This document shows, piece after piece, positions 2,363 to 25,742 of a DNA stretch of 64,000 nucleotides; within the stretch, counting starts at the first letter, position 1, and each line of letters opens with the position of its first letter. A program made the translations under genes and the position numbers. The notes under the pieces are model-generated. The model was not told the origin of the DNA. It did not search any database and saw nothing but the letters and a program-made list of their open reading frames with translations. The stretch comes from Amphiscolops sp. MND2022 (Eukaryota): the NCBI GenBank assembly GCA_964187785.1, contig OZ076410.1:37696001-37760000 (forward strand), read 5' to 3'.

Positions 2363-2799
2363 TTAATAAACAGTAATGGCTTTTTGCATTGGTTCGCTTT
2401 GTGTGAATGAAAGTGTCTCACGGTTGCTGAGTTAGATTAGCTGCTGAGAGAGAACATTTTGTTAGGATAACTTGGTCGAAAAAAAGGTTGGCTGACCGCG
2501 TTGTAACAAAAGTCCAGCTAATGCTGGATCTCTTAAATGGTAAAGGAACACGGAGGCAAGCCCATTGCCTGACTCTTCTAGAAAAACGCTTTTTGCAGAT
2601 GGGATACAAAGCAAGCAGAGACGCTTTGAGAAAAGTCATTAGAAATTAAAAGGGGGTGGCAGCCGGTACTTCTTTATCATGAAACAAATTAAATTATTTA
2701 CAAAGCAAAAAATATTAAAAGACCATACAAGAATATCATTTTCAACTTCATCATCAATCGAATGGACAGTTTGAGAAAATCGAAAAAAGGCCCAAAATG

Positions 2800-5038: not shown

Positions 5039-6076
5039 CTGAAACACACACAAAACGTTGAAACAAAATCATGAAATACCGATTTGGTCATTTCGAAAAA
5101 CGGAAGGCAAGATAGATGCGAACAAAATCTTGCTCGATATCTTAGATTTTGTTAATAAAATGCAATCAATGGATTCAAGATCCATTGGAACTTTGAAATA
5201 ATTCGGCAACTTCACAAAAACCTTCGAGTTTAATATGTTCATTGTCAAATGAAAAACATACTTTTTGAAGGTTTTTTTCTATCTTCACGACAAGCGTTAA
5301 AGATTTTGAACATATGCACCTGGGAGGGAGGGTTTTTGATACCAAGGCTTGCTTAATCTTGACTTGAAAATTCTTGAAATCTCGAACCAAGTGATAATTT
5401 CGAACTACTGTCGAACCAATAGTGAATGCAACATTTTTTCTGTCTTCAATCACAACCGCCAAGCTGAATTTGTAGGAAAAATCTATAGTTAACAGAACAT
5501 ATTTAGAACTTTTTCTTAGATAAAAGCAGACGAAATGATTTCCATTTCAGCGCTTCCAAGCCACGTCACTGATTGATTCCTCGAAACCAATCTTACTTGA
5601 CGTCATTGTTATCTAGACAACATGAGTTACCCATCCCTAATGACGCACTAATGCAGAAGAGAATAATTGAGTAAGAAAACTATCGTTGCAAGGGAATAAT
5701 TAAGACTATCATCGTTGCAAGGAGCACTTAAACCGACACAAATGTCTTATCACCCACAACAAATAGCACTTCAGAAGATCAATAACGCAGGAGAAAGTAA
5801 TCCAATACGTCGAACAGATCATTCAACATGCCTGGAATAAATGAGAGCAAGCTCAAATGCATGATTCTTCCAAAAACAACGTCTACCATTCATTGTTTCA
5901 AATTGACGCACAGAAGAGATGCAACACCATGTACACGGCAAGTCTATGAAATGCTAGAAACGTCATTGCTTACTGTGATACCATTTCACTAAAAAATAGC
6001 GCATGCGAACATGATCATGAAGCGACCCGAATCATAAAGAACTTCGAATTTACATGAAACAAGTATTTGGGCTAAC

Positions 6077-6671
6077 CTGAATTAGAAATATGTGTTAGAA
6101 TATCTTTCCACTGGTTGTTCATTATGGATACAAGTTCCTCGATACTCTTGGCATTATCGAATACATTGCAAGTAGAATTCCTATCCAGGACCATATCGCC
6201 TTCAGCCAAAGAATCCAGCTCCAGATTATTTACATTGCCGCCTGCACATAAAGCCCCCACGTTGTTGTTGCTACATGTAATGGAAGTTAGTGCAAAAGAT
6301 AATGAGTTGAGCAGGTTTCTTTCTGGATCCACTTTCATGTAGAACATTTTCGACAGACATTCTTTCGCGACAGTGTCACTAACTTGGCAGACAATTGTGG
6401 AGTTGATCAATTGGATAATCTCATCGCATGTTTTCTCGGCACAATTGCGATCGCAAGTCGTGTTGTTTTCTATAACTTGCACAATGTCTGCATAGATACT
6501 ACCAATGTTTGGCTTCGCAGAACTATTTCCTCCAGCCTTTTGTGATACTTTGGTTCCATTTTCTTGAATTACGGGTTTCGAGTCCACTGGTTTAGTTGAA
6601 GAACGCACGCCAGCGCTCTTAGCCGTCGGGTTTTGCCCGACAGGCCGAGTAGGAGCAGTCTTCTTATTCAT
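6077..6671 (-). CDS. NCKIPSD: Probable first coding exon of the SPIN90/NCKIPSD-like gene (low-complexity N-terminus, then helical)
   Basis: ATG at 6671 is directly preceded by an in-frame TAA. Donor G|GTTAGC at 6076 is phase 1 and joins the 5038 exon in frame (NS-V-NQ), giving about 491 aa. Confidence 0.55.
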
Positions 6672-7870: not shown

Positions 7871-8479
7871 TCATCGCTTTTTATGACTTTTATCCTTCCG
7901 TTTTCGTCCTCGCGATCGAGACCTGGATTTTCGTTTGTGGCCGCGTCGATCATTGCTTTGATGAGGCGATCTGTCCCTACTGGATGAATGTCTCCGATGC
8001 TTTCGTCCGTTCTCTGATTCTCCATTTCTCATTTCATCTCGATCACGTTTGTGACTATTTCGATCAGGCGAGAAGTCTCGTTTCCTATCAGCATCTTTCC
8101 TCGAACAACGATCACTACGATGACCGTCCTCGCGATGACGATGCGGAGAAGCAGGAGACCCACGACGAACACTTACTTTTCCGTCTTTACTATTTTCCCC
8201 ACGTCGTCCCTCGGCTTTGGAATTTTTCACAGAATGGTTAGAAGATTTCATAACAGCTGGGTTCCCATTCGGAGTATCTTCGTTATCGCTCAGAGCACTG
8301 GCAAGTTTCTTGGTTCCTACCGAACTTTGAGATTTGTCTCCGTTTTTGAAGCCCTTCCTCTGCTTAAGAAAAGCTTGCCATCTCATTTTGGATACACTCT
8401 GGCTAAAGTCGACGTGGATTCTTCGATCGTCTATCAAGACGTTGTCCATTTTGAAATACGCCTTTTCACAATCTTCTTT
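7871..8479 (-). CDS. PPIL4: PPIL4 exon 5 (end of RRM plus Arg/Ser/His-rich tail)
   Basis: [31 protein letters not shown] matches the PPIL4 RRM C-terminus. Acceptor TTGTTCCAG at 8480 is phase 0. Confidence 0.95.
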
Positions 8480-8626
8480 CTGGAACAACATAACATTTAT
8501 TTCGAGCAGTCCCTAGACCGCTTTTACCTCTCATACTCAACATGTGATTCCCGGTGTCCCTATTTATTGATGCGTATGGGGGAGGTTGACGTTCGAGAGA
8601 TAGAAAAAAATCGCGAAACTACTCTT

Positions 8627-8980
8627 AAGCCGGGAACGGCCCAAGTCGGCGCCATATCTAAGGCTCAAAAATAGCAAAAGGACTTCAAAGTGTCAAGTAT
8701 TCTCTTCTACAGTACCCGCATGAGGAAAAAATTGGAAAAAAAGTTCAATTTTTTCAAAACTTATTTTTGGTCCCCGGAAGTCGCATAATGCCGAAAAATG
8801 TAAAAGGGTCCTCGAAAAAGCCTAATTAACTTCTATCTCAAGTGCCAGTAGAAGTGTGGCATTTAGTGTTAGTTCAAGTCAGCTTATAAAGCTTATAAAA
8901 TCTGTCACTTCGTTGGTCTTCAAAAAAAAGTCACCACTACAGTCTGCGTTTTTCTACGAAAAGCGCCGACTAAAAACTAG
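8627..8980 (+). mobile_element. Family A Helentron/HINE-like element in PPIL4 intron 4
   Basis: 5' AAGCCGGGAACGGCCCAAGTCGGCGCCATATCTAAGGCTC; 3' stem-loop AGTCTGCGTTTTTCTACGAAAAGCGCCGACT followed by AAAAACTAG. Hairpin plus CTAG is a rolling-circle-type terminus, and AGTCGGCGC/GCGCCGACT forms a subterminal inverted repeat. Confidence 0.65.
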
Positions 8981-9127
8981 AAACTTCAGAAAAATTTAAA
9001 ACTTCATTTCTAAACTAGGAAATTTTTGGAAACCTTCGAGAATAACCGCAAAAAATTGATAAATGAGCAGTATATTTCGATCGGTGCGAGTTCAACAGAC
9101 GGGCCTTGAAAGAAGTGCAAAAGAAGA

Positions 9128-9133
9128 GCTATG
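9128..9133. repeat. Polinton target-site duplication GCTATG (left copy; right copy 22911-22916)
   Basis: Identical 6-mer directly flanks both element termini. A 6-bp TSD is typical of Polintons. Confidence 0.95.
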
Positions 9134-9253
9134 AGTAGTAAGGGAAGGGAGGGTTTACTGCAATTTTTCGATCCCAAACCATCATCTGCAATTTTTCGAT
9201 CCCAAACCACCGAGTGTAAAATTTCGATCCCAAACCGAAATTCTGCTAAGTCA
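9134..9253 (+). repeat. Left TIR of Polinton
   Basis: Reverse complement of 22791-22910, with 9 mismatches in 120 nt by manual alignment. Contains three AATTT(T)TCGATCCCAAACC-type repeats. Confidence 0.95.
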
Positions 9254-9726
9254 TAAAGGTCAAAGTTTGAATTCACTCCAACTGTCATTTTTATTTGCTA
9301 ATTACACCAACTATCATTTCTAGCGAGACAATTACTTATCAAAACGAAGAAACTGAGGAAATCTGAAAAGTCAACGAAACTGACGTTTTACTAACACCAG
9401 CTTAGATTTGCAGAAACTGCAAATTCTTTTTCAAAATTGAATCACTAACCCGTATATCGGCACAGAACAATTCCAGTTGAATAAAATAAATCTCGAGCTT
9501 TTGATAATAGAGGATGTGAAATGACGTACTCCGGTAACTGGAAAACCTGCAAAAACTGAACCAGCAGTATCTTGTTCCTATATTAATGCTGGAATCATGA
9601 TTGAAAATTCCGTGACTAGAGGAAAATTCCGTATCGAGGAGTTAACTAAAAATAAATCAAAACCGACCATTTCTTTGCTGATTAGTCTCAAATTCAGTTG
9701 GTTTTGACTCTATTCAAGTTATTCTG

Positions 9727-10582
9727 ATGGCGACTGTGTTCAGGGAAATTCCATCGAAATACTGGTTGATTTTATTCCACTCTGAAAATAACATCTCAAA
9801 CACTTCTCAGGAAACAGAAACTGAGGCTTCAGGAGCAGCTTGTATTCCAACTAGTTTGTCTAATTTGTTGGAGATCCTCGTTTGCTCGCATGATGCGCAA
9901 TATATCAGACGGCAACACAAGGAAAACGATTGCAACCATGGAGAATCGAGAAGCTTCTGTGAAAATTTCCCTCTTGATCATCATCATGTACTACTCTACA
10001 TTCCCAACTCCACAAATATTCAGGATGTGTTGAAACAGACTGTGACACAAGTTCTATCAACAGCACAGAACGCGTATGCGAAGATTTTCACTGTTTCTTA
10101 CCCCGAGAATTTTATAAAGTCAGAGGCAGCTGTTTCAAAAAAATTCCTTCTGCATTAGAGGGGAAAAAAGTCAATATCTAATGAATCAGAAGACAACTGA
10201 AGATTTGGGATGCACATTCAATTGCGTTTGGGAGTATCAAAAGCACAATTCACTGGGAGCATGCAACGACAACGAAAAAGCTCTGTACGTCTTCCAAAAA
10301 CTATTAGAATTGGAAAAATCGGAATCGCCTTTCAAAGATACCATTGTATCCTACATCGATCTCCTACAGAGAGGAGCAGGCAGACTTTTCTTGTCTGAAC
10401 ACAGTCGCACCCTAGATATCGACTTAGGTTGGACAAATGCTCAGTGTATGTGTTTCGATTGCTTGAATCAACAGCCTATGCAGCAAGAGGGAACAGAAAG
10501 TGAGAGAAACCGAAGTTATACAAATCAACTGTTTTCAGTGTATGATGAAGACACGCTCATTGATACATCATCATTATTGTAA
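9727..10582 (+). pseudogene. Polinton ORF of unknown function, probably one gene split by a 1-nt slip in an A7 run (ORFs 9727-10158 and 10181-10582)
   Basis: Removing one A at 10137-10143 gives AAVSK-NSFCIRGEKSQYL-MNQKTT, open into the second ORF. No recognisable motif. Confidence 0.45.
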
Positions 10583-10629
10583 AATAATTGTTGAAATTCA
10601 GTTGCTTCTCAATTCAGCTTTTACTAACA

Positions 10630-11037
10630 ATGTTTTCATCCGAAGATATTTGTCACAACTTTGTCAAAGTAAAGTATTGGTTTCCGAAAAACTCAACTTC
10701 TAAAAATGCATTTCTCGCAGTATGTTGGTCTTTGGATGAAACAATTGATTTGCACAAGGTCAATTCAAAGGCGCCTTTTGGAGGTAATATTGGTCCAGGT
10801 GACAGTAGCCTCCATGATCTACTAAAATTTTCAAAAATAATCCGAATGCACGCAATTTTCCACGACGCCCATGACTACATGCGAACTGAAAACGGTATTG
10901 GCCCTGGTTATGTCTACACTTTGACTGACAAAAAGTTATTCCGGAATAACATGCTATTGGGACACTTCTCAGGAATTCTCTATTGGACTTTCGTCAAATT
11001 TTTCAACTCTGAGTACTTTGAAAAGTTTCCATTTTGA
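10630..11037 (+). CDS. Phospholipase A2-like small protein (parvovirus VP1u-type motif), 135 aa
   Basis: GGNIGPGD (Ca-loop-like GPG) followed about 17 residues later by HAIFHDAHDY (HD dyad), then GPGYVY and a hydrophobic C-terminal segment. Confidence 0.5.
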   Translation: MFSSEDICHNFVKVKYWFPKNSTSKNAFLAVCWSLDETIDLHKVNSKAPFGGNIGPGDSSLHDLLKFSKIIRMHAIFHDAHDYMRTENGIGPGYVYTLTDKKLFRNNMLLGHFSGILYWTFVKFFNSEYFEKFPF

Positions 11038-11097
11038 TCATTCTTGCTCTGTTAATCGCTTGAAGCAGTCGCCTCCAAAACTGTCAAATCAAAAGTG

Positions 11098-11451
11098 ATG
11101 ACAAATTTTGATACGAATAGTTCTAGTGGATATATCAGTGAACTCTCTCTGCACAATACGCAAGATCAACCGGATACAGCCAACTTTTCGCAGTTAAACA
11201 TTGATAGAATTGTATTCGACGAAAATAACCAGGAAAGACCACCGTTCAATTTCGGTCTCTTCTGTGGTAGTAACTGTAAATTTGACCGATCACTCCTAGT
11301 GATATTGATACACCACTTGATTATTTTTATGCTGGTTGTGTTTTGCATCACTTTCCTAACAGTTTGTGAAACCGAAAACAGATTTGCTTCAGGAATACTT
11401 GCGCTTTTGTCTGCATGCTTTGGCCACATTCTCCCAGCTCCTAAACAATGA
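11098..11451 (+). CDS. Small two-transmembrane protein
   Basis: Hydrophobic stretches SLLVILIHHLIIFMLVVFCITFLTV and FASGILALLSACFGHILP. Its stop overlaps the ATPase ATG (ATGA). Confidence 0.65.
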   Translation: MTNFDTNSSSGYISELSLHNTQDQPDTANFSQLNIDRIVFDENNQERPPFNFGLFCGSNCKFDRSLLVILIHHLIIFMLVVFCITFLTVCETENRFASGILALLSACFGHILPAPKQ

Positions 11452-12149
11452 ACAAGCGAATCAGTACGCAGCCTCATTGCTTCATTTCTATTGTGGGACC
11501 AGCAGGATGCGGGAAAACACAACTGGTTGGGCGTATGATTTCTAATCAGGAAAAAATATTTTCACCGCGCTTCACAAAAATAAGCTACTTCTATAAACAC
11601 TATCAACCGCAACATGGAAAAATTTTAATGGAAAGCGAAGCAAAAAGTATAGATGTGGAGTTTGTTCAAGGATTGGATTGGAATGCTTTGGAAAGAGCGG
11701 AAGCTCTCAAAAAACGAATTCTTTTGGTTTTGGATGATTTGTTTGACGAAGCTGCCCCAAGCAAAGAGTTCCTAGCAATTGTAATTGCAGGTCGCCATCG
11801 AAATGTTCATCTAATGGTTCTGCGGCACAATTTGTATCAGCAATCTAAAAATTCAAAAACAATCGACCTAAATGTGACCCAGATTATTCTATTCAACAGT
11901 CCAAGGGATTCAGAACAGATTGGTATCCAGGGACGACAGCTGGGCGAGAGGCAAACAACTATCGATGCATATAAAAGAGCTACTCGGAAACCTTTTGGTC
12001 ATTTGATGATCGACCTCGACGTGAGAAGTAGCAAACTGTTGAGGTATTCCTCGAATTGTTCTGGCGAGGGACCATCCGTTTTCTATTGTTCCACTGACAA
12101 GCTTAATTTAAACCTTGAGAATGAGTTTACAAAACTATTATACAGTTGA
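11448..12149 (+). CDS. FtsK/HerA (A32-like) genome-packaging ATPase
   Basis: Walker A GPAGCGKT, Walker B LLVLDDL, IAGRHRNVHLMVLRHNLY, NVTQIILFNSPRD. Confidence 0.92.
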   Translation: MNKRISTQPHCFISIVGPAGCGKTQLVGRMISNQEKIFSPRFTKISYFYKHYQPQHGKILMESEAKSIDVEFVQGLDWNALERAEALKKRILLVLDDLFDEAAPSKEFLAIVIAGRHRNVHLMVLRHNLYQQSKNSKTIDLNVTQIILFNSPRDSEQIGIQGRQLGERQTTIDAYKRATRKPFGHLMIDLDVRSSKLLRYSSNCSGEGPSVFYCSTDKLNLNLENEFTKLLYS

Positions 12150-12468
12150 TTTATTCGTTAAATTTCCAACAGTTCTGAAGAAATGCTTCATTCTAAATTG
12201 CTCAGATGATATAATAAAGTTTTTCTGCGATTCAATTTTTAATGTAGTTAAAGGAAACGTAAAGTTAGCGAAAGCGCTACAAAGTAAACTGTCAACCTTA
12301 TCACGTGAGAAGAAAACTATGGAAAACTTATGCTCTAAGCGAAAAGTTTCAGTTAGAAGAAAACGCTACATACTTGCATCTACACGAGGCCTACGTTTGT
12401 TGAAGCTGATTCTCCCTTCAATATCGAATCATTTGAAAATTTGTCATGGTGTCGAACGGCAGCGTTAA
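12115..12468 (+). CDS. Conserved-type small basic Polinton protein
   Basis: CSDDIIKFFCDSIFNVVKGNVKL...KRKVSVRRKRYIL resembles the NVLKGNV-type small ORF I recall next to the ATPase in animal Polintons. Overlaps both neighbours. Confidence 0.55.
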   Translation: MRMSLQNYYTVDLFVKFPTVLKKCFILNCSDDIIKFFCDSIFNVVKGNVKLAKALQSKLSTLSREKKTMENLCSKRKVSVRRKRYILASTRGLRLLKLILPSISNHLKICHGVERQR

Positions 12469-13147
12469 AGAATTCGTCCTAATAACTCAAGACGAATACA
12501 GCTTTTTGAAACATAAGGGACAGAAGGAAGATCAAAACTTGGACAGCCGCGAAAAGCAAAAACGCAACTTTCTCGCTCAGTTTACTCCGAATCCAGAGGA
12601 GCCCCAATTACATTTAGAAGCAGACCCAAATGAGGAAAATCCGACAATTCATCAAGAACAATCATTACTCGCTCAAATCAATTTGAATTCAAGGTTCCAA
12701 GAGAAGAAAAAAACGCTTGACACCAAAACATCAGAAAACTCTAGTACTGATTACCAAGTGAACAATACACCGGACCGTGTTTTATCCAGTTTACTGCAGT
12801 CGGGAATAACGGGGGGAAAAACTGAGCGGTCCCGTCAAATATTGAAAGCAATCCAACAAAGTGAGCGAGTCTGCATCGACGACAACACCCAGAGCATCTT
12901 TTTAGACCAACAGGACACGTGAATTGGTGTAACAGATTTCCTCACAGCTCTTCAAGTCAACACCAAGCAATTGCCAAAGCAACTTTTGAACTTGGTCGAA
13001 GTTCTCCGCCTGCCACAATATCTTTTAGCGAATACGTACGCCAGACAAACAAGTTCTCAAATTCAATCGAGGTTGGGTTCAGGTGAGTCTGTGGCGAAAC
13101 GAATCAAGCTCGATACCGAACCTAACAGCAGTTGGTTGACAATTTGA
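12446..13147 (+). pseudogene. Polinton ORF of unknown function with in-frame premature TGA at 12920-12922
   Basis: The frame stays open after the TGA (IGVTDFLTALQVNTKQLP...SSWLTI*) to 13147, about 233 aa in total. Confidence 0.6.
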
Positions 13148-13158
13148 ACCTTTTCACA

Positions 13159-13332
13159 ATGGGTGCGAGGAAGAAGAAATGGTTTTGTGGATCATGTCAA
13201 AAAAATTTGGGCAAAGGGTCAAAAATCTGCCCCACAGTATGGTGTCATATTTGCGGTTGGGTTCACTTCAAGTGTGCCGGTATCAAAACCATCAGTGAAC
13301 ATAATGACAAATTTATATGTACAAATTGCTAA
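13159..13332 (+). CDS. PHD-finger (C4HC3) domain, in frame with the integrase
   Basis: CGSC...CHIC-GWVHFKC...CTNC spacing. ATG at 13159, TAA at 13330-13332. Confidence 0.75.
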   Translation: MGARKKKWFCGSCQKNLGKGSKICPTVWCHICGWVHFKCAGIKTISEHNDKFICTNC

Positions 13333-14325
13333 AAAAAGAGAATTTTGATTGAGAATGATGACTCGTTCGAGGCAGCATTTAACAAGATTCACGATTCCTA
13401 CACCAATACTCAGAAAGCCACAGCATTCGGGAGCCGGCATAATTTGATAAAAGCTACAAAATGTTCTCCCAAACAAGTGGACAAGTACTTGCATGCAAGC
13501 GAGACCTATCCGAAATTCAAGATGGCTAAGAAACGTTTCATCAGACGTTACAGACTGAATGAAATTTGGTCAATTGATTTGGCTGACATGCAGCAACTTG
13601 CGAGAGACAATCCAGGAATCAAGTACCTTTTCGTAGCTGTAGACACCCTTAGTCGATTTCTCTGGGCATCTGGAATGAAATCAAAAACCTCCAAGGAATG
13701 TGCAGACGTCCTGAAAAAAATCATCGCTTCCAATAGTCGCAGAACAGGTCCAAAAATTTGCACACAAACTTTCTCTCCTGAAAAACTCTGGGCAGATAAA
13801 GGAAGAGAATTTGAAGGAGAGTTTGCAACATTTTGCAGGGAAAAGGGTATCGAAATTTACTCCACACAGAGCGAGACGAAGTCGGCAATGGCCGAACGGT
13901 ATATCCGAACATTGAAGTCTTTGATTTTCAAATATTTGCATGAGCATGACACTAATCGGTATATCGATCAACTCGACAATTTTGTTTCCATCATAAATAG
14001 CCGAGTTAATCGCATCACAAAGTTGGCTCCGCGAACAGTTTCCCAAAAAGACGTTCCTTACCTAGTTTCTCTTTGCAACACGAATCTTCCACAACGACCA
14101 AAATTTAAAATTGGTGATCAAGTTCGAGTTCGCCGAAAAATAGAAACATTTCATCGTGGCTACAAAATACAATTCACTGAAGAGCTCTTTACCATAGTTC
14201 AAATACCGACAAATAACCCGCCAACATACGTGGTAAAAGACACAAAGAACGAAATAATTTTGGGAAAGTTTTATGAACCGGAATTGGTAAAATTCACACC
14301 ATTACATCAGAAAAATGGCAATTGA
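13333..14325 (+). CDS. Retroviral-type (rve/DDE) Polinton integrase
   Basis: WSIDLADM (D1), VAVDTLSRF, LWADKGREF (D2), SAMAERYIRTLK (E), FKIGDQVR...FTEELF, GKFYEPEL. No in-frame ATG until about 13522. Confidence 0.93.
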   Translation, partial: KKRILIENDDSFEAAFNKIHDSYTNTQKATAFGSRHNLIKATKCSPKQVDKYLHASETYPKFKMAKKRFIRRYRLNEIWSIDLADMQQLARDNPGIKYLFVAVDTLSRFLWASGMKSKTSKECADVLKKIIASNSRRTGPKICTQTFSPEKLWADKGREFEGEFATFCREKGIEIYSTQSETKSAMAERYIRTLKSLIFKYLHEHDTNRYIDQLDNFVSIINSRVNRITKLAPRTVSQKDVPYLVSLCNTNLPQRPKFKIGDQVRVRRKIETFHRGYKIQFTEELFTIVQIPTNNPPTYVVKDTKNEIILGKFYEPELVKFTPLHQKNGN

Positions 14326-15310
14326 TACAAAAAGATGCGAATTTACCTTGAACCTGATATCCAACGCATCGATGGAAACCTTCCCGGGAAACAGGTTGTC
14401 CAGTTTCACCACTCTTTTACCAGAGCCTTTCAACTTACCGGGTGAATGGCAAGTAGCTCTCGTGGAACTGTCTTGGCCGGCAATGATACGCAATGTCACT
14501 GAGGGTCAAATAACAGTCTCTAAAAGCCTCGATACTCCTAAAGCATCATCAACTCTACAAAATCCTAGACGATCCACAGGACTCGTATCAATGACTGTTC
14601 CCAAGGCATTCCGCTCGTCAAACGTGCAATTCACTGCTCCAGAAACTAAGCAAATCAAAACGGGTTGCTATTCTTCAATCGATTCAATCTTGAAATCAAT
14701 CTTCAAAACCGCCACTGACGGCAGAGTGAAGCTGGACTCATCAAAGAGTGGAAAAACGAACGAAGTGTCAAAGACTGGACTACCATCTATTTCATGGAAA
14801 GTTGATTGCGCAACAGAGGAGCTACAAGTCAAATTTGTGGGAAACGTGAAGACACACGGGTTGGTAATCAAAGCGAAGTCCCAAGATTTGAAAAACATGT
14901 TGGGAACGACAACACTGATCGATTGCCAAAGCGACGCTTCGGCAAGAGAGCAACCATCAGAGAGGGGTGATGATTGCAGAATTGTCAAACATGAAGGACA
15001 GTGGCCAATTGATCTCAATGGTGGAAGTCATACAATGTTTGTGTATTGTGACTTGGTTCAAAACGAAACTTTGGGTGATGTGCGTACAGCGTTGCTTCGA
15101 TCGGTCCCCCTTGAAAGTTTATCCAACTCTAGTCAAAAGAGGAGGGAAGTTAATCACAGAAGTTTTACAAATTTGCAATGGAAGAGAGTCTACAAATCGC
15201 AGTTTCAGTCAATCACGCTCTCATTGGCAAACGAAATTGATCAAACGATGCCCTTTTTGAGTTGCGGACGAACCAACATTACCCTAGCACTTAGACCCAA
15301 ACCACTCTAG
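14315..15310 (+). CDS. Minor capsid (penton, PX-type) protein
   Basis: Diagnostic N-terminus LISNASMETFPGNRLSSFTTLLPEPFNLPGEWQVALVELSWP and C-terminal YCDLVQNETLGDVRTALLRSVP. Confidence 0.85.
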   Translation: MAIDTKRCEFTLNLISNASMETFPGNRLSSFTTLLPEPFNLPGEWQVALVELSWPAMIRNVTEGQITVSKSLDTPKASSTLQNPRRSTGLVSMTVPKAFRSSNVQFTAPETKQIKTGCYSSIDSILKSIFKTATDGRVKLDSSKSGKTNEVSKTGLPSISWKVDCATEELQVKFVGNVKTHGLVIKAKSQDLKNMLGTTTLIDCQSDASAREQPSERGDDCRIVKHEGQWPIDLNGGSHTMFVYCDLVQNETLGDVRTALLRSVPLESLSNSSQKRREVNHRSFTNLQWKRVYKSQFQSITLSLANEIDQTMPFLSCGRTNITLALRPKPL

Positions 15311-15415
15311 ACAAAATCATTTGCGGAGCATTTATTGAAGCAAACAGTTGCCGTCACTCACTACTTATCCATCATTGTTCTTTCAAAAGATTACCGCAAG
15401 CACTAGTTGAAGATC

Positions 15416-15946
15416 ATGGACGCTCATTACGACGCTCAAATACAGTCTCTAGCCTCGCATCCCTCAACCTTCAGCGGCCCCGCTCGACAAATGGGAGCAG
15501 GTGGTGGTTTGGGTGCCTTTGCAGTAAGAATGGGAAGAGTGGCCATTCCAGTGATTAAAAAGTACATCTTACCGGTCGCCAAACAAGTGGGAAAAAATTT
15601 ACTAGAATCTGCACTGCCTGAAATGAGTAATGTGCTCAGTGGCAAAAAACGAGTTAGCCGGAAAATGCTAAAATCGGTAGTCCAAAACACTGCTGAACGA
15701 ACGCTTGCTAAAAATTCCAAGAAGCTCAAAGCGGCAACACACCCGGAGAGCAGCCAAACGTCCACGGAGCCGCAGTGGGCGGGGCGGAACGGCGGCGGGC
15801 GAGCGGGGAGCGGTCCAACCGCCAATCGAAAAAGGTTTAAAGCAACCTCATCTGATAAAACAACGACTTCGCTCATTTCTGGAAAAAGTCCCGCAAAAAG
15901 AAGTCGGTCCGATATTTTGCCCCAAATTCAATTCTCAGCAGTTTGA
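15416..15946 (+). CDS. Conserved Polinton core/membrane-active-type protein (Gly-rich motif, amphipathic helix, basic tail)
   Basis: HYDAQ...FSGPARQMGAGGGLGAFAVRMGRVAIPVIKKYILPVAKQVGKNLL; K/R-rich C-terminus; lies between the minor and major capsid genes. Confidence 0.65.
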   Translation: MDAHYDAQIQSLASHPSTFSGPARQMGAGGGLGAFAVRMGRVAIPVIKKYILPVAKQVGKNLLESALPEMSNVLSGKKRVSRKMLKSVVQNTAERTLAKNSKKLKAATHPESSQTSTEPQWAGRNGGGRAGSGPTANRKRFKATSSDKTTTSLISGKSPAKRSRSDILPQIQFSAV

Positions 15947-16009
15947 ATCACGCACTGCAAGCTGGCTGCAGCATCAGTATCTTCGAGTGGCAATTTTTTC
16001 GGGAGCGCT

Positions 16010-17323
16010 ATGGAAATTGCTAGCCCAGTTACACATAGTGCTTTGGATTTCTTCGAAAAACCCAATGTTCTAATAAACTACGAAGGCTCATACGACCAAG
16101 ATGTGTTTCCTCACGTTGGATGTCGAGGTCCTCAGCTAGACTTTTTTATTTCTGCAGAATCAAAAAACTTGATTGACTTGAACCGTATTGTATTGAACGT
16201 TAAAGTTGGAATTTATCAAGAAGATGGCAAAGATCGACTCAAAGTGAATGAACAAAACATTGTGTTTGGAAATAACACGTTGCATACTCTCTTTTCTCAT
16301 GCCGAATTATATCTGAATGGCAAACTAATTTCACACAGTAACAATTGCTATTTACATTAGGCTTTTATAGAAACTGAACTCACGACGGATTCCGAAGCAA
16401 AAAATACTTGGGCAAAATGCCAAGGATACAATTATCTCGCAAAGTCTACTAAACGGCTCGACCTTCATAATGCGCTTTATGCTGAATTTGACCAACAAAA
16501 AGAATGTACCATGGAGTTGTGCGGGGCCTTGCACATTGACTTTTTAGATTGTGAAAAACTTCTCGTGCCCGGTGTCACACTTCATTTGCGCCTTTACCGA
16601 TCTCCCACAAATACGCTTCTGTCTTTGAATGGTTCAGACGATGAAGCGAAAGCTTTGGAAGGAAAAGTTCAAGGAGTAATTGAAAAGGCATCTCTGTTTG
16701 TCAGAAAAGTGGTTGTGACAGACAGCGTTAAGTTGTCTATAGAGAAGGCCCTAGTTAAAAGCGCAGCCATTTACCCTTATATTGAAAGTTTGAACAAGAG
16801 TTTCATTATTCAAGCCGGTCAAAACTGCTTTGTCAAGGAGAATGTGTTTGGAACGGAACCAATTCGTAGGTTGACCTTATGCATGGTTAAAAATTCACTT
16901 TTTCGAAGCACTCCCTTGAATCACTCGCTTTTCACCTATCAAAAATTTTCACTAGAACGAGTAGAGCTTCAACGTGGTAATGGCGTCCCACTAGCAGGAA
17001 CACCCCTAAACACCAACAACAACACTCGGCTCTACTATAACACCATAACAGCATTGGGATTTGGCAAAAGTGGAAACGGAATCAAACTTGAAGATTTTGA
17101 AGACAATCACTTTTTTCTAGTGTTCGACTTGACGTCAACGGAAGAAGCGAGCAAGAGCTTGACCTTATTTCCTGAACTCACCGGATTAAGTTTGACATTG
17201 AAACTTTATTTTTCCAAAGCGCTTGAAGACGCTATAGAGCTGTTCCTTATTGGCGAAAGATTCAGTCAGATATTCATTGATTCTTCTCGGAACGTATCCA
17301 AAAACACTTTGATTGATGGATAA
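16010..17323 (+). pseudogene. Double jelly-roll major capsid protein (PY-type) with in-frame TAG at 16358-16360
   Basis: SALDFFEKP, GPQLDFFI, IDLNRIVL, NNTLHTLFSHAELYLNG, LHIDF, LVPGVTLHLRL, YNTITALG, FLVFDLT. The frame is open on both sides of the single stop (NCYLH*AFIETELTT). Confidence 0.88.
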
Positions 17324-17854
17324 TATCAGCCTGCTAGAACTGCTATGCTGTGCGGCTCGACTGAACACACATTTGGTGGTATTTGGTCCTCTGACAACTT
17401 TCCTAAAATAAAGGAGAGGCGCAGCAAGAAGAAAAACACGGTCAAACTATGCAGAGTCGTCAGATTTCAAATCATAAACTCAGAACCTTCAAGTTCAAGT
17501 GGCCGACATTGGCTGCTTTTGATAGTAATCAACATTCGGGACGAAAATATGACTTTTGTGTGGGATTGTCTGGGTCGACCACTTTCATTTTACGAGCACT
17601 TTCATATGAGGCTAATCAAGCTTTATGGTCGAGCCCCTGGTGCTTTCACAACTCTTAATTTACCCTTACAAAAATCTAGTTCAAATCTATGCGGCCTATA
17701 TTGTCTGTATTTGGTACACTACTTGGTAAAATACCCATTCACTGTTCTAGAAATGCATAAAAATTGTAAGCTGTTACAAACAACTGAAATTGATATAGTA
17801 CGATTTTTCAACAAAAAAATTGAAGGCGCTATTTTTAAATACAAAATTTTATAA
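17316..17854 (+). pseudogene. Adenain-like cysteine (maturation) protease, likely N-terminal frameshift near 17345
   Basis: FGGIWSSDNFP, GRHW (His), VWDCLG (Asp), LQKSSSNLCGLYC (Gln/Cys). ATG 17316 (MDNISLLELL) overlaps the capsid stop but is out of frame with the body. Confidence 0.85.
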
Positions 17855-17956
17855 ACGAGGAATTAAAGTTATTAGGCTGTATACACCTGTTTTCTTCGAT
17901 TCGCGGATTTTGTTCACCATTAGAGAGAAAGGAGATCAGTTGAAGCGAAATTTCGT

Positions 17957-18174
17957 TCATTGATTTTCATCGTTTTCGTTGTATGCCCGCGTCTTTTTGA
18001 AGTTGGGCTCACAAACTTCATCTTCCTCCGCTTCCCAGTCTATAAATGCACAAGTTGGTGCTTCAGAGTCACTTGCTCCGTCGTCGGCAAGGTATGAGAG
18101 CCGATCAAAGTCGACAACATCTGATAAGTCATCGTCTAGTACAGGCTGTTGATTGAAACCCGGATCAGGGAATG
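17957..18174 (-). CDS. Putative last exon (acidic) of spliced pPolB C-terminal extension
   Basis: Follows acceptor TTATTTTTTCAG (18175). Open frame FPDPGFNQQPVLDDDLSDVVDFD...EAEEDEVCEPNFKKTRAYNENDENQ*. Confidence 0.6.
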
Positions 18175-18241
18175 CTGAAAAAATAAGACATTGTGGAAAA
18201 GTTCACATTGGAAATGCAAAGACAGGATTATCTAAACATAC
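18175..18241 (-). other. Putative spliceosomal intron (67 nt, phase 1) in Polinton
   Basis: GTATGT...TTATTTTTTCAG. Removing it joins two open frames. Confidence 0.65.
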
Positions 18242-18418
18242 AAAATGAGGGAAGAGAGTTGAAGGCAGATTCGAGGATTCCTTTCGAATGAGGAGAAACT
18301 GGCATGGAGGAGCTAGATTCAAGGTCTGTTGAATCAGGCGTCGAGGGACCAGTCGAAAGATTGGATTCACTAGAGGAGCGCCTATCGCTACTTGAACCAT
18401 TGCTGCTGCTTGAAGACG
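18242..18418 (-). CDS. Putative 177-nt symmetric (phase 1-1) Ser-rich exon
   Basis: Acceptor TTTTTTGTAG, donor GTATGT. Encodes (A)SSSSSNGSSSDRRSSSESNLSTGPSTPDSTDLESSSSMPVSPHSKGILESAFNSLPSF. Confidence 0.6.
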
Positions 18419-18490
18419 CTACAAAAAATGGCTTGTCACAAAAACTAGATGTTAAGTTTTTTTAATAAAACATGGATTCAATGACCTGAC
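18419..18490 (-). other. Putative spliceosomal intron (72 nt, phase 1) at the pPolB C-terminus
   Basis: TCAG|GTCAGG...CTTAAC...TTTTTTGTAG. Removes the unspliced stop and links ...HHRITFES to the Ser-rich exon in frame. The donor is weaker than consensus. Confidence 0.5.
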
Positions 18491-21400
18491 CTGATTCAAA
18501 AGTTATTCGGTGGTGGCCATACGCCAGAGACGATATCCCATTGTCCAGAATGAACCGCTTGTCATCAAAACTACTTACTGCCACTTTATCAATCTCATTG
18601 ACGAGAATCTGATGACAAGATGAACGTAACTGGGTCATCGTTTTGGTCACTGACTTCTTTGTGAAAAGGCACTCCTTAAACAAATCATGGTTCAGCGTTT
18701 TTTTCAGTTTTCTGTACACCTTTGGCACTTTGCTTCTTTCCGCCAATATAATCAATGCTGTATAACTTTGACCGCAGGCAAACCACTTCATGCAATACTT
18801 TACCATTGAGTTCATCAATCATAGTGAGTGGCACTTTTTTGTTGGTAGGGTCATACAGCGGATGTTCTGGCGGATAGTCGGAAAGATCCAATAGATGCTT
18901 AAAGCTTTCCATGTCTTTGTATAGATCAGATGTTTCAACCAGGTACAGTAAGGAGTCGGTATCTTTATAAGCAACTTTCAATCGATCTGAAGAGTAGCGT
19001 GGTACCATCTCTTCATAATGAAATTTGTACAAAGACAGCTTGGACAAATCGAGAATGGAAGCCCCAACAGGAGTAGGCTTGGTCCATAAAACAGATGAAC
19101 TTTTGAATGACACGGACACCAAATTATCATTAATTATTTGGAACGATTTAAAAGTTGCGCGCTGTGCTAAGGTTTCAGCTTGCTGGGGGTTGGTAACAAA
19201 CTTGATTTGAGAACGCTTTCGCAAGTTTTCCATAGTTTTCCCGAAGCAAGCATTGCTCATTAACTTGTAGAAATTCTTCTCGAAGTCATTGGTAGCTTGC
19301 TTTCGCATAACGGTGTTCTTCTCTATGTACACCCCCAACCATGTGCTTTGCTGGAACTCGCAAACACGATGTAACTTTGAAACTTGGAGCCCATGTTTTA
19401 CATAAAACTTCAAATTCTGATAGTGGCAAACGTATTTTTTTTATCGTATAAAGTTTCGACAAGTTTCGGCGTTTTGCTGGCCTTGATACCAAAAGAATTC
19501 GCATAAGGAGAAAGCCAAGAAGGTCGAATGCACACTTTCTCTGGGGCTAGTGGCAGGCCATTGTGACTATCGTGCAAATGAGACGGATACTTTAAATCAA
19601 CCTCAACAAAGTAACCAACATTGGAATCTTCTGGGGTCTGTAGAATTTCTGCAAGCGTGATACAAGTATTCCATTTATAATTTCCTAAAGGCATCATTTT
19701 TTGCATTGTCCCAGTGTACAAAGAAGTCACATCAAAAAAAGCGCCAAACGTAGTTGTTTCATTGCCATCAAAACTTTCGAAATAGGGGTTGTTTGCTTTG
19801 AAGTGTCTCAATTCGCCAACTCCATTGATACCTCCACGGATAGCCCGTTCGAAAAAAAGAAGCATGTCAATATCCTCTAATAACCCTAGTTTAACATTAG
19901 TTGAGATAAGCATCGCTTCCCAGCTTAAATTTGGAGCTGAATAAAAATGTGTAGGATCAAGTTTGTATACACTGAGACATACACTTCTAAACTTTTCAAA
20001 GATATCAGCGAGGATAAGCACATCTGTTTTCAAGTATATGTCATGGTAGTCTCCAAGGTTGTTACAACTGAACTCTCTGTAAACGTCTACTGCGTGTTGG
20101 TAATCAGCAAAGGTTATGTCAATTTTACCAGAGAGACTGTTTCTCCATGGTTCACCATATTCTGGTAAAGGCTTTTGAAACTTCGTGAAGCTATCTAAAT
20201 AGCTATAGGGAAAGAAACATTTGCGTGTAATCTTGCCAAATAAATTATCGGGAATACCCAAAAAACCATCTTTCAGATGCTTGAAGTCTGTTTGGGACAG
20301 TGTTCTTGCTAAACTTTCAAGACTCTGAGAAACAAATTGATAACTGTCCAAAAAACGGAGGGAATGAACCAACTTTACAATTTTCCAGATTTCTCTTTAT
20401 ATGTACCCACGGGAACATTGATACTGAAAGAAATGAAAGTTTCGTCGGTTTTTTATATAGCTGTCAAGTCTTCGGATGGCTTCAGTTTCAAATTTTTGAT
20501 AATGTGATGAGCATCATATCTGGACAAATTGTGAAAAAAAATAGGGAGAAAATTTGGCGTTCGGGCTCTGAGATTACATCTTGAATGTGCAATTCCGAAT
20601 ACGGCTCCAGTTAGGTGGCAGTGATGTATAACACGGTCTGATCTCTCAACGTCTTTTCCACAAATAAAGCAAGTTTTCGGAGATTTAAGCATTTGCTTTC
20701 TTTGCTGCTTCGGAATATTCAGAAATCTGTAGTTTTGTTTTTCTCTATAACACCAGGAAAGCCAATTCCTCAGAGTATCTAACAACTTAGAGATAGGATC
20801 TTCGCCTCTATAGAATGATTGCTTTGTAATTTTATTGCCTGAAACAGTAGCGCTAGTTTACGAAGCTTACACTTTCTTCACCAATTGAAAGCACACGGTA
20901 TGAAGTTAGAAAAAAAGATAACTTACTTCTGGAATCAACTAACACAGCACCATAACTTGCTGGGTACTGCCTCTCCACTTCCCGCGTTCGACTATGGGTT
21001 GCAGTTTGCAGAACTGTTGAGGCTACATTAATCGCTTCGAGGTCAGCATATACCACAAACGGACACTTTTGAGTCTTCTCCCAATGAAAAAACTCAATGC
21101 TTGTTGACTCGTCAGGCATTCGTATTTCCAGCGGTGCATTCGTCTCGCAAAACATAAAGTGCTTCTTGAAGTTTTGTTTGACAATGGGTTGAAAGCAGTT
21201 CCGGCAAAATCGGGATTTGGGACCCTTCCCTTGCTTAAGTTTTGATCGAGTCAGGAAATGAATCAAATTGGAAAAGTTTTTGATCAAACAGTAGTGATTG
21301 TTTTTGTTGTCAACCAACCGCAAAAGATCAATTTTATTCCTCGCCTTCCGATTTTTGGTGTGATATACAGACACTAGCTTACTCTCCTCCAATTGGTAAA

Positions 21401-22348
21401 CATTGATGGAACAGTCATTTTTTCTTTCGAAGCAAGGGATTGACGTTAGAGGCATTGGCATAAGTTTCGAATTGAAATGTAGTCGCTGGATGTTTTTCCT
21501 GTGTGACTTGGGACTTGTGGCTCTTCCAACAAACGAAAACAATGCTGCCGCTATACAGTACAAAAAGCAGAAATTGTCCTGTTTGTTAACAATATTTAAA
21601 ATGGTTCGGGTCAATGGCTTTAGGAGCGCAGGTGTTTCAATGTAAGAAGCACCAGTTACGTTACTGCAGGACACTGTTTTGATTTCCAATCGCTTCAAGG
21701 ACTGTACCACCCAACCGGAGCCTCCAGTAGCAAAGACATTCAACTGACTCATCAACGCATCAACATGTTCATAGTATTCATCATCCGTGAATGCACATGC
21801 GATTCTGGACATTGGTGAATTGAAAAAAGCCTCAGTAACTTCGCTCTCAAAAGGTTTCTCCAATTTGACACTGATCGTTATCCCCAGCTTAACATTTGGT
21901 GTTTCTTTCAAAAGATTGTTCACGAATCCAATAACTCCATCTTTTTGAGAAACCAAATAGTTGAATGGCTCCAATGCTCTATCACTCTCCAACTTGACGC
22001 GATGAATAAGGAATTTGGAACTTATTGCTTTGGTCGTGAATTCAAGCAAGCTAGAGACATCAATCGTATTCGAGTGAGGGGTTTTTGTTTCACCATGGAA
22101 AACTTCGTTGTGATCTACGAGTGCAGCTTCGTTCCCAAAATATGTGGGACAGGAGAAGCAACGTACACTGTTATTTGAATTGTGTTGTTTCCTGATGTGT
22201 CTCAATAAATTGTAAAGCTCGCATCACATTCACCACATCGGAATAACTTCGCATTGGAATTGCTTTGACTATCGTGTTTTTTTCGCATGTGATCTTTCAA
22301 AGCCCGTTCCGAGCCAAAAAGTTTAGCACATTGGGTACAAGAAAACAT
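18462..22348 (-). pseudogene. Protein-primed family B DNA polymerase (pPolB) with N-terminal C2H2 fingers, terminal-protein region, exonuclease and EndoVII/HNH-like insertion; several frameshifts and a stop
   Basis: VVYADLE (ExoI), HNLSRYDAH (ExoII), FLDSY, YLKTDVLILADIFE, FFDVTSLY, KLMSNACFGK, YKDTDS, SFDDKR, AYGH; CFIC...HCHLTG...AHSRCNL insert. ATG at 22348 begins MFSCTQCAKLF. Breaks near 22220, 20455, 20375, 19435 and 18700. Confidence 0.95.
20839..20926 (-). other. Spliceosomal intron (88 nt, phase 1) inside pPolB
   Basis: AGAA|GTAAGT...CTGTTTCAG|GC. Excision gives VDSR-S-NKITKQSFYRGEDPISKLLDTLR and joins ORFs 20853-22205 and 20453-20785 exactly in frame. The intron contains an in-frame stop. 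Confidence 0.8.
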
Positions 22349-22790
22349 GGTGAAATTCGTTCTTTTAGTTCATAAACAGGTAAAAAGTCGTGGTCCGTTT
22401 ATTTCACTACAAAAAAATCAGCACGGAAAAAAACAGCACTTTGTATTTTGGGACCACGGCTTTTTACGGTGCTGGTTCACGTTTTCCGATATTATAGAAT
22501 TCAAATTAAAATATAACAGAGCGTCGCAATAGTACTATGGAAAGTGAATTTGAATTGAGGCTCAGTTCATTAGGTGAGAAAGTCGAATTATCGGATTGAG
22601 AATTATCGGATTGACCAAGTCAGAATTTGATAGCCTACTTTCACTTTTGTTAGTTTTGTTCATTTTCCGATTTCGGTACCGAAACTGTCGTTAAAAGTTT
22701 GCACAACAAAGTAATTGTGACTACGGATGACAGTTGGTTTGCATAGGATTTGATAATCTATATTTGGTTCAAATTGTACTTCGAACTCTC

Positions 22791-22910
22791 TGACTTAGAT
22801 GAATTTCGGTTTGGGATCGAAAAATTACACTTAGTGGTTTGGGATCGAAAAATTGCAGATGGTGGTTTGGGATCGAAAAATTGCAGTAAACCCCCCTTTC
22901 CCTTACTACT
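22791..22910 (-). repeat. Right TIR of Polinton
   Basis: Ends ...CCCTTACTACT, followed by the TSD GCTATG. Three GGTTTGGGATCGAAAAATT repeats. Confidence 0.95.
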
Positions 22911-23044
22911 GCTATGATATTCACTCGGTCACAATGATACACGCTAACTACACTTACACATCTAAAGCAAAATCATTTGTGATTAGAGTTTTAGTCAAAA
23001 CTGAGTAATCAACAAAGTGGCATAAAGTAAACGACATTACTAAC

Positions 23045-23248
23045 CTGGTCGAATTCAATAAATGCATATTGCAACGAGTTTCCAGTCTTCCAATCGCGGA
23101 TAACTTCGCAGCTGAGAATTTCACCAAAGCGGCTGAAAATGATGTGCAAGTCTTCTGAGCAGGTGGCGGGATTCAGTTTGCACACAAAAAGCACGTTCTC
23201 AGGGGGTTTGACGTCTACACTCGGCAAATCCCCAATCATTTCCAACAC
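23045..23248 (-). CDS. PPIL4: PPIL4 exon 4 (RRM)
   Basis: [27 protein letters not shown]...YAFIEFDQ. Acceptor CATTAG, donor GTTAGT, 204 nt. Confidence 0.96.
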
Positions 23249-23587
23249 CTAATGCATACAGAAATTAAGAAACAATGCATCTATGCTCATCACTGCAACA
23301 TGGGCTTTTTTCGTCGACAGTTCAAAAATATTGAAAGGTTTTCTATATGCAGCCTTTCTTTTTTCAAGAAAAAGATTTTATTGCATAGTTTTCGGAATAC
23401 TGTTACAAGAGAGTAGATTAGACTATGTTATTACCAAGAAATGCAAGACAATGAAATGAATATTCCACTTATCATCACCGGTAAATCAGAAATTTCAAAT
23501 TACATTTTATATGTCTATGAATTTTATATTTCTTTATTACTTTTAAATACATTAACGACAAAGCTACTACCCGAAGTAGAAAAAAAA

Positions 23588-24262
23588 ACAAGTCGGCAAC
23601 GGCCCAAGTCGGCGCTTCGCTCAGGGTTCAAAGTTAAGACAAATATGCAAACATAAAAAAAACAATTTAGGAAAAATCAGCGTCGAAAAAGCCAAAAGGA
23701 GACCATTTAACTTTGCGAAAGACTTTTTCTAAGCCGAAACCCTTCGACCTAATGAATTTTCCGAAAAGTCGCACAGTACCGAAAAAAGTATATCTTTTTT
23801 CATCAGCCCTACGTGACCAAAAAATAACCAAAGAGGTTACCGTTGAGACTCGGAAAACGGGTTTTCTCAACAGAAAACTACAAAAAATAGTGAATAAAAA
23901 TGTCGAAATTCAACAATTGCTTGAAAATTCTTCGATAACTCGCATAGTTAAAGAACCCGAAGAGGTCCTCTATGCTCGCAAAACGCTTTGTTTCTGATAA
24001 AAATCAAGGGGGTTCAAAAGCTTCAGAAAAGTCACATAGTGACGAAAAAAAACAGAACGGAGACCTTTCGGTCTCCATCTACTTTGGCAATCATAAAAAA
24101 TTTCGTACAGCGCAGGGTAAGAACCCATTTAACCTCATTCCCAGCTACTGTCAAACCCGCGGTAACCACTAGGACAAGTGACGGGAGCAGTTAGAAGTTA
24201 ATAAGGTACAACTTATAGAAATGCTTAGAAATGTAGGCTTTCTATCGAAAGCGCCGACTAAT
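23588..24262 (+). mobile_element. Family A Helentron/HINE-like element in PPIL4 intron 3, diverged
   Basis: 5' AACAAGTCGGCAACGGCCCAAGTCGGCGC; 3' GGCTTTCTATCGAAAGCGCCGACTAA. Boundaries are approximate. Confidence 0.5.
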
Positions 24263-24390
24263 AAACAAAAGGTTTAATCGAAACTTTGATCTCGTTAAAC
24301 GATCGTAGAGCGATCGATACGCAGTATATTGAATTGCAACAACTTGACAACGGTTGAATAAAGCGACCACAAAATAAACTTCCTGCTTAC

Positions 24391-24600
24391 AGTGGCTTGT
24401 GCCCTGGCTTCCTTTTCTTTGAACTCTTCGTCGATTGCTTCCACAGTCAAGGCTTTTTCGTCGGCCAGTTCCTCGTCTAAGCACATGCGGTCACTTTCCA
24501 ATACATCTCTGTTGGGACTTGGAGACCTAGAGGGAACACACAGTCCATCTGGGTCTTCAAAGGGATCCTCCAAAACGATAGTATGACAAATACGAATATC
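24391..24600 (-). CDS. PPIL4: PPIL4 exon 3
   Basis: DIRICHTIVLEDPFEDP...KEKEARAQAT. Acceptor GTTTAG, donor GTAAGC, 210 nt. Confidence 0.95.
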
Positions 24601-24848
24601 CTAAACACACCTCGTGGAAGAAAAACAGCGTGATAATTGAACAGCGTGACACTAAACTAATTTTTTTAGTACTATTTGAAAATTCGGTAGCTAGCAATCA
24701 GCAGCTAAATTCTCTGTGCTACTAGAGTCCCAACTTCGATATTCCTGATAATTCTAGAAATTTAAATGTATTTGTTGATACATTGATTCGTGACATTCGT
24801 AGAAAACAAGGTGCAGCGATCATGAGAAATCTAACTTGAAATGCTTAC

Positions 24849-25076
24849 TTGATAAGGGCGACTGTCACCATCTACCAGAGCATCGTTGAGTTTTTCCACC
24901 AGTTCAAAACCTTCAACTACTTGTCCAAAAACTGTATGATCATCGTCCAGGTAAGTCAAGTCACTTCCCAATGTTATGAAAAACTGAGAAGCGACGTTAC
25001 TCTGATTAACCATGGAAACAGTCCCTGGCCGAACATGTTTCAATCTTGGCTTCTTTTCACCTTCAAAATAAGTCGC
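24849..25076 (-). CDS. PPIL4: PPIL4 exon 2 (cyclophilin domain)
   Basis: ATYFEGEKKPRLKH...GTVSMVN...SQFFIT...HTVFGQVVEG...RPYQ. Acceptor TTTCAG, donor GTAAGC, 228 nt. Confidence 0.95.
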
Positions 25077-25520
25077 CTGAAATGAATTTACTTGCAAGAC
25101 CAGTATGCAACCAAATGTCTCCTCGAAAACTGGATAGTGCTAGTACATGTATCACGCTCTTGAAACACTCTCAACCTTTCATGCTTAGATTTTTTTGGAA
25201 AAAATGAATTATTATGAATTGAGAACCGGTATAAAAATACACGCTGCTGGAAGGAATGGAATTCCAAAAAAAAACATTTCTCAAGAAGAACGCAGGTGCT
25301 GACGTGATGTTTTTCTGTAAATTTCATAAAACATGGAATGTTAGTTTCAGGTGTTGCGGCATTTAGGCATTCTTTGCATTAGGCAAGAATGGCCCTGTAA
25401 CTAGCAATTATATCATCTGATGATGCTATACATCGCTGCTCCCTAAACGAAACATTTGATACTTAGCTGGTTCATAACTGACGTGCACACATGTAAGATC
25501 GAGTCCAAAAGATGAAAAAC

Positions 25521-25742
25521 CTGAGTTCCATAAAGTGAAGCGAAAATGGATTCTCCTCCAGTGCCTCGGCCAGTCGGATCTCCAGTTTGAGCTATGAAAT
25601 TTCTTTTGATGTAGTGGAAGGTGCAAAAATTGTAGTACTTAATTTTGCACAACTTCAAAAAATTTTTACAAGTGCGCTCCCTTTCGTCAGTAAAAAGATC
25701 GATGACAATATCACCGAGGGTCGTTTCAACTAACACACTCAT
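25521..25742 (-). CDS. PPIL4: PPIL4 exon 1 (cyclophilin domain N-terminus)
   Basis: [21 protein letters not shown]...[13 protein letters not shown]...[19 protein letters not shown]. Donor CAG|GT at 25520, 222 nt. Confidence 0.96.

Follow-up and report, generated by a model that had tools for sequence, protein, structure and literature searches.

The Polinton found in the window (the whole stretch of 64,000 nucleotides that was analysed) belongs to a family in which a PHD finger and the integrase are almost certainly made as one protein, and the stop codon that separates them here is confined to this copy. The reading that we prefer, to which we grant an even chance as a whole, is that the family gene encodes a PHD-integrase without a chromodomain, that the window copy is broken, and that the finger likely tethers the protein to nucleosomes through the H3 tail without giving it a promoter address.

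The element is 13.8 kb long (9134-22910), is bordered by a 6-bp target duplication and sits in an intron of a host cyclophilin-RRM gene, which we take to be PPIL4-like, about 2.8 kb from its start codon. Polinton/Maverick hallmarks are present: AGT/ACT ends, the 6-bp duplication, a protein-primed family B DNA polymerase (pPolB), a DDE integrase and a packaging ATPase. The adenain-like protease scored under the Pfam cut-off, and the capsid genes, which gave no Pfam match, were placed by gene order, the minor capsid protein being named from the order given in PMC8097293. The features are as follows.

7871..25742, minus strand: host cyclophilin-RRM gene whose intron holds the Polinton (exon-bearing frames 25443-25742, 24831-25139, 24295-24600, 23009-23248 and 7871-8512)
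9128..9133, plus strand: left target-site duplication, 6 bp, identical to the six bases at 22911-22916
9134..9317, plus strand: left terminal inverted repeat, starting AGTAGT; 184 nt, 80% complementary to 22727-22910
11445..12149, plus strand: packaging ATPase, A32-like (PF04665, E 1.3e-6, over cut-off)
12437..13147, plus strand: gene before the integrase, function unassigned; stop at 12920-12922, first piece without Pfam match
13159..13329, plus strand: PHD finger, N-terminus of the integrase gene (C4HC3 pattern, model of a sibling finger, profile matches to PHF23 and Pygo2)
13330..13332, plus strand: premature stop TAA, in the window copy only
13333..14325, plus strand: rve integrase with helical N-terminal part, DDE core and SH3-like C-terminal part, no chromodomain (PF00665, E 1e-10, over cut-off)
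14291..15310, plus strand: probable minor capsid protein, by gene order only; 339-aa frame, no Pfam match
15947..17323, plus strand: probable major capsid protein, by gene order only; broken at 16358-16360, second piece without Pfam match
17324..17854, plus strand: candidate adenovirus-type cysteine protease (PF00770, E 0.002, under cut-off)
18462..22223, minus strand: pPolB, in several pieces (PF03175, E 1.2e-7 for 19413-20396)
22727..22910, minus strand: right terminal inverted repeat, ending ACTACT
22911..22916, plus strand: right target-site duplication, matching 9128..9133

The window Polinton is a decayed copy, with isolated stops, a deletion (12 bases, in frame, near 13546 in the integrase) and a broken polymerase. 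The premature stops that an earlier reading of this DNA, made from the sequence only, had reported in two other genes were located at 12920-12922 and 16358-16360. Sibling L183, 98.8% identical, is open at both places; its pre-integrase gene is a single 236-aa frame, and the major capsid frame is open both there and in another subfamily. The major capsid and protease frames of this sibling are joined (L183:6893-8788, 632 aa), a separate protease-like frame was seen in 4 of 5 other subfamily copies, and the joining probably reflects a stop that was lost in this copy only. Elsewhere in the window, another host gene lies downstream of the cyclophilin-RRM gene (4158-6671, minus strand), the region 26000-47000 contains recent duplications with periods of 2184, 1378 and 8091 bases, and two palindromes, each perfect over 443 bases, occupy 38045-38487 and 39423-39865.

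The sequence-only reading had proposed an ancestral continuous PHD-integrase, and the siblings bear this out. In the window, the ATG at 13159 opens a C4HC3 finger (C-x2-C ... C-x2-C-x3-H-x2-C ... C-x2-C) ending at 13329, a single TAA occupies 13330-13332, and beyond it the frame stays open as far as the final stop at 14323-14325; the next in-frame ATG is at 13522. Searching the genome at the DNA level returned 29 other loci, 17 alignable as DNA and 12 representing subfamilies at about 67% identity. The codon at 13330 is sense in all 17 alignable siblings; TAA is not fixed and occurs in the window copy only. All 12 more distant loci continue past the finger, and the frame is open from the finger through the integrase to its normal end in 12 of the 29. 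At the protein level, 103 PHD-integrase places were scored in the genome, and every match starts in the finger region. Counted from the table, 89 of these matches are free of stops; their frames, of 389-437 residues, represent at least six subfamilies. Among public sequences, 266 proteins yielded 167 near-complete integrases, and the finger was recognised in 35 of these by pattern and in a few more by profile. It was also found in 5 of 80 metagenome loci, one contig sharing the Polinton gene order, and the 28 pattern matches in IMG/VR included no relative. Because the PHD-integrase frame recurs at about 100 places in the genome and in public relatives with as little as 41% identity, it is not a product of chance. 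In moderately diverged copies dN/dS was 0.12-0.26 for the finger versus 0.06-0.09 for the core, distant pairs being saturated; such ratios indicate that the finger is under purifying selection. A finger hidden in another frame of the PHD-less relatives was also considered and rejected, none being seen in 75 of the 80 metagenome loci or in the PHD-less loci of the genome itself.

The stop could in principle be genuine, with separate finger and integrase products, or with an integrase translated from a spliced message or from a start further downstream. We regard this as scarcely credible, and it is largely refuted by the sense codons and continuous frames of the siblings. Moreover, 24 of 33 relatives have no methionine in the stretch that separates the finger from the first catalytic Asp, so that a separate AUG start for the integrase is not available, and the linker joining finger and integrase is constant at 85-88 residues.

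The identification of the finger as a PHD stood as regards its C4HC3 pattern, its profile and its modelled fold, but not as regards the Pfam threshold. The window finger alone reached 15.1 bits against PF00628, under the cut-off of 24 (E 0.024); weak matches were obtained in 11 of 36 relatives and none passed, the best scoring 21.5. The Cys4-His-Cys3 pattern was found in 36 of 38 aligned relatives, and a Cys4-to-His spacing one residue shorter than usual is a trait of the family. A profile of 14 natural fingers matched PHF23 (E 4e-4), Pygo2 (E 6.5e-4), KDM7, PHF13, EBS and TAF3, and the first Atlas match of the finger was PHD/Pygopus (0.92). A natural sibling finger was modelled with a pLDDT of 79. 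All the Foldseek matches listed contain a PHD, with AL3 as the best (E 0.006). In VIA the top seven rows were PHD fingers, led by BPTF (Z 5.2, rmsd 2.4 over 53 residues) and Pygo (Z 5.1), and FYVE domains reached Z 4.1 in the same comparison. The structural neighbours returned by Foldseek and VIA are mostly H3K4me readers. With only 60 residues, modest scores such as those obtained with the model are to be expected; they agree with one another, and we consider a PHD fold very likely.

The residues of the putative binding pocket were compared with those of Pygo, for which PMC2726290 describes W366 and Y341 as pocket residues and E360 as needed. The tryptophan two residues before the zinc-binding histidine, at the place of W366, is kept in 36 of 37 fingers. 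The second aromatic wall, a Trp or Tyr two residues before Cys1 at the place of Y341, is present in 22 of 37 and is Trp in the window copy; in 15 of 37 the first cage aromatic is replaced by Leu or another residue. The place of A356 holds a small residue or leucine, that of D352 is basic (lysine in the alignment), and an acidic residue directly after Cys3, at the place of E360, occurs in none of the 37. The net charge of the finger ranges from +1 to +9, with a mean of +5.5, and is positive in 36 of 36 relatives. By its sequence, the finger thus looks half like a methyl-lysine reader and half like a basic surface.

The DDE codons of the integrase lie at about 13576, 13795 and 13894 (motif positions), and the model of a natural relative's integrase matched retroviral intasomes with Z 17-18. 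In the full-protein model no confident packing of the finger on the core was obtained (pTM 0.52), the linker being of low confidence (63-66). A chromodomain was detected in none of the 36 PHD-bearing relatives versus 47 of 54 long-tailed relatives (54 of the 60 were scanned for chromodomain and PHD), and a PHD was absent from all these 54. The C-terminal tails of the PHD-bearing integrases are at most 14 residues long. In a 122-row tree restricted to the integrase part, one branch (SH-aLRT 96) united the 36 PHD rows with a single PHD-less row. It was nested in a 61-row chromodomain-less branch (SH-aLRT 99), and this outer branch was repeated in a 61-row mixture-model tree (SH-aLRT 99). Both trees are quick and midpoint-rooted; for this reason we only infer the order of events, in which loss of the chromodomain likely preceded gain of the finger. 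A direct swap of chromodomain for PHD was rejected, since integrases without either domain lie between the two groups. The fusion may have a single origin, the branch support being 21 in the 122-row tree and the placement of P0102 unsettled.

The source of the finger was approached with the deepest-branching finger as query, which scored 149 places in the genome with up to 55% identity. Four of the 8 nearest non-Polinton fingers pass the Pfam PHD cut-off and three of the 8 adjoin reverse transcriptase (RT) or GIY-YIG genes, which makes a retroelement donor likely; the finger would probably have been taken from a retroelement. Retroelements L209:2865-5606, L349, L350 and L356 have a related PHD that either follows the RT domain or precedes a GIY-YIG domain. 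Other N-terminal additions were noted on the chromodomain integrases P0235 and P0244, one phospholipase A2-like (E 5e-8) and one weakly adenain-like (E 0.014), which may represent true fusions or separate genes joined during gene calling. A second, distant Polinton family of the genome (L160, L162, L164-L167, L169-L172) has integrase frames of 283-300 aa without PHD, chromodomain or N-terminal helical part, and its ATPase lies on the opposite strand. When a chromodomain-bearing query was run against the genome, a lower-bound search, none of the 115 scored matches reached into the chromodomain; the genome may hold no chromodomain Polintons.

In order to examine insertion sites, 5-kb left flanks were collected from 61 of 65 PHD elements, 45 of 53 distant PHD-less elements and 9 of 10 close PHD-less elements, together with 40 random stretches. 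Their frames were scanned against Pfam (593 of at least 102 residues and 450 of 454 shorter non-repeat frames); two matches (L190 and L279) were dropped as low-complexity artefacts. The assay is crude, because Pfam detects only some exons, family ages differ and selection removes genic insertions. In the discovery set, host-gene domains lay within 5 kb of 8 of 37 PHD elements, 3 of 30 PHD-less elements and 1 of 40 random stretches (PHD versus random, p 0.012). The planned replication failed, with a host gene in 2 of 24 PHD and 2 of 24 PHD-less flanks. The final counts were 13/61 for PHD, 3/45 for distant PHD-less and 4/9 for close PHD-less elements, and 2/40 for random stretches, giving p 0.042 for PHD versus random, 0.053 for PHD versus distant PHD-less, 0.007 for close PHD-less versus random, and 0.33 for PHD versus pooled PHD-less (7/54). 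No 5' bias was observed: of the 13 PHD flanks with a detected exon, 8 had the insertion on its 5' side (binomial p 0.58), as had 2 of 7 PHD-less flanks; an apparent bias (8 of 10) vanished after three further matches, all 3'. Flank GC, CpG ratio and shared-repeat cover were similar for PHD, PHD-less and random stretches (first 107 flanks), and other mobile elements flank 11 of the 61 PHD insertions. Ten elements with the window copy's own termini were scanned on both flanks under a different cut-off and kept out of the pool; host genes lay near 3 of them and retroelement genes near 6. Insertions are thus mildly tilted towards genes, in a way that is neither specific to the finger nor focused on promoters.

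Several observations on the same flanks concern the genome and the integrase core. A short high-copy repeat lies within and around host introns (window 1-3600, 8600-9120 and 23550-24150). It occurs in 11 of 16 gene-bearing versus 13 of 38 mobile-element-bearing flanks (p 0.035) and may mark a gene-rich compartment. A pyrimidine-purine step occupies the centre of the 6-base target in 48/61 PHD, 5/9 close PHD-less, 20/45 distant PHD-less and 8/40 random cases (left ends of 115 elements, L169-L347), and places 2 and 5 favour A and T in the PHD group; this preference is likely a property of the integrase core. One of the 40 random 5-kb stretches (L276:627-5000) fell in a Polinton-type polymerase gene, which indicates that such elements are abundant in the genome.

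These results bear on the proposal that the finger, by reading H3K4me2/3, directs most insertions to promoters and 5' ends of active genes, which we now judge improbable. The discovery counts spoke for it, as did single cases: one PHD insertion 0.66 kb before a fructosamine kinase exon, a MOV10-like helicase gene with a single frame of at least 1,493 residues (L139:3-4481), preceded at about 0.5 kb by a sibling element, and the window copy itself, 2.8 kb into a gene. When the repeat was used post hoc as a marker of gene-bearing flanks, it was present in 40/61 PHD, 27/54 PHD-less and 15/40 random flanks (PHD versus random p 0.008, versus PHD-less p 0.13), and selection would purge promoter insertions and so mask a signal. 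Against it stand the failed replication, the lack of 5' bias, flank GC and CpG no different from random, and a close PHD-less family equally near genes. Steering by histone marks, as the sequence-only reading had it, is hence unsupported so far: the tilt is modest, unreplicated, common to the close PHD-less family and without 5' bias. Insertion into a housekeeping gene, which had been taken to fit such targeting, is an anecdote from a single case.

The same lack of a PHD-specific insertion pattern would be expected of a finger that does not read histones but takes DNA, a viral partner or another integrase subunit as its ligand, replacing a missing zinc-binding N-terminal domain. The uniformly positive charge and the missing acidic residues of the Pygo pocket agree with such a role, and the PHD finger of BAZ1A reportedly binds DNA. 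PMC5636791 ascribes an unusual binding function to the BAZ1A finger, and PMC2836005 describes Polinton integrases as devoid of the N-terminal zinc finger of retroelement integrases. However, the pocket tryptophan is kept in nearly all fingers and the structural neighbours are H3K4me readers. As for assembly, many close relatives work without any finger, so that it is not needed for that step. We hold a non-reader role to be possible though rather unlikely. A histone-binding finger could also act at another step, by switching on the integrase at chromatin, as the RAG2 PHD does for RAG1, or by holding element DNA on host chromosomes. Such a role would be consistent with a finger that is strongly conserved yet hardly affects where insertions lie, and the PHD of RAG2 not only places RAG but also stimulates cleavage allosterically (PMC10629977); the lack of confident packing of the finger on the core in the model speaks against it, and we consider it very improbable.

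On this basis, we retain nucleosome tethering through the H3 tail. A lineage would first have lost its chromodomain and later acquired a finger from a retroelement; the conserved tryptophan pocket would bind methylated H3K4 with low affinity, assisted by a basic loop touching DNA, and the resulting tether would help integration without imposing a promoter address. Binding of the finger to the H3 tail is predicted with slightly better than even confidence. We hypothesise that histones may guide site choice; a measurable shift of site choice by the finger seems rather doubtful to us, and we would propose only tentatively that chromodomain loss and capture of a retroelement PHD moved the elements from repressive to active chromatin. 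A role of the chromodomain in Polinton site choice is itself only proposed (PMC8502044), and a clade that lacks it and bears another reader-type domain makes the question testable. About 100 copies in at least six subfamilies, beside PHD-less relatives in one genome, constitute a natural experiment on site choice, and the family is a likely further example of retroelements and virus-like elements exchanging domains. Should the finger indeed bind methylated H3K4, this would be the first virus-like DNA element with its own H3K4-methyl reader on the integrase, one protein doing what RAG does with two subunits; if it does not bind histone, a conserved basic PHD with another job in an integrase would be a smaller but real novelty.

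The closest known systems compare as follows. The element shares with Polinton/Maverick elements (adintoviruses; PMC8502044, PMC8097293) the AGT-type ends, 6-bp duplication, pPolB, A32-like ATPase, a candidate adenain-like protease and an rve integrase followed by the probable capsid module. The adintovirus integrase is described with a predicted chromodomain (PMC8502044), whereas here the chromodomain is absent and a PHD stands at the N-terminus; the word PHD is absent from both papers. In the full-text literature, searched by titles and the starts of abstracts and with Repbase and subscription papers outside the scope, no description of a PHD on a Polinton integrase was found. The Ginger1-9_HM transposase (PMC2836005) likewise combines a PHD and a Gypsy-like integrase in one DNA-element protein, but there the PHD is C-terminal, accompanied by Ulp1, and occurs in 1 of 16 listed families of a cut-and-paste transposon, whereas here it is N-terminal, sits in a virus-like 13.8-kb element and marks a whole clade. 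PHD fingers also serve as accessory domains in CR1, Penelope-like and Rehavkus elements (PMC8557442), where the proteins that carry them are of the reverse transcriptase, endonuclease or Mutator type and none is a Polinton integrase. The Pygo PHD (PMC2726290) is of the same subtype by profile and Atlas, with the places of W366, Y341, V350 and A356 kept or similar; the family finger differs by a basic D352 place, a non-acidic E360 place and its net positive charge. The PHD of RAG2 and RAG2L (PMC10629977) likewise partners a transposon-derived DDE enzyme; there it resides on its own subunit and has been shown to bind H3K4me, whereas here the finger is fused and its binding only predicted. PHD fingers on mobile elements were already known; what is new is this domain arrangement, with the fusion established at the DNA level across the clade.
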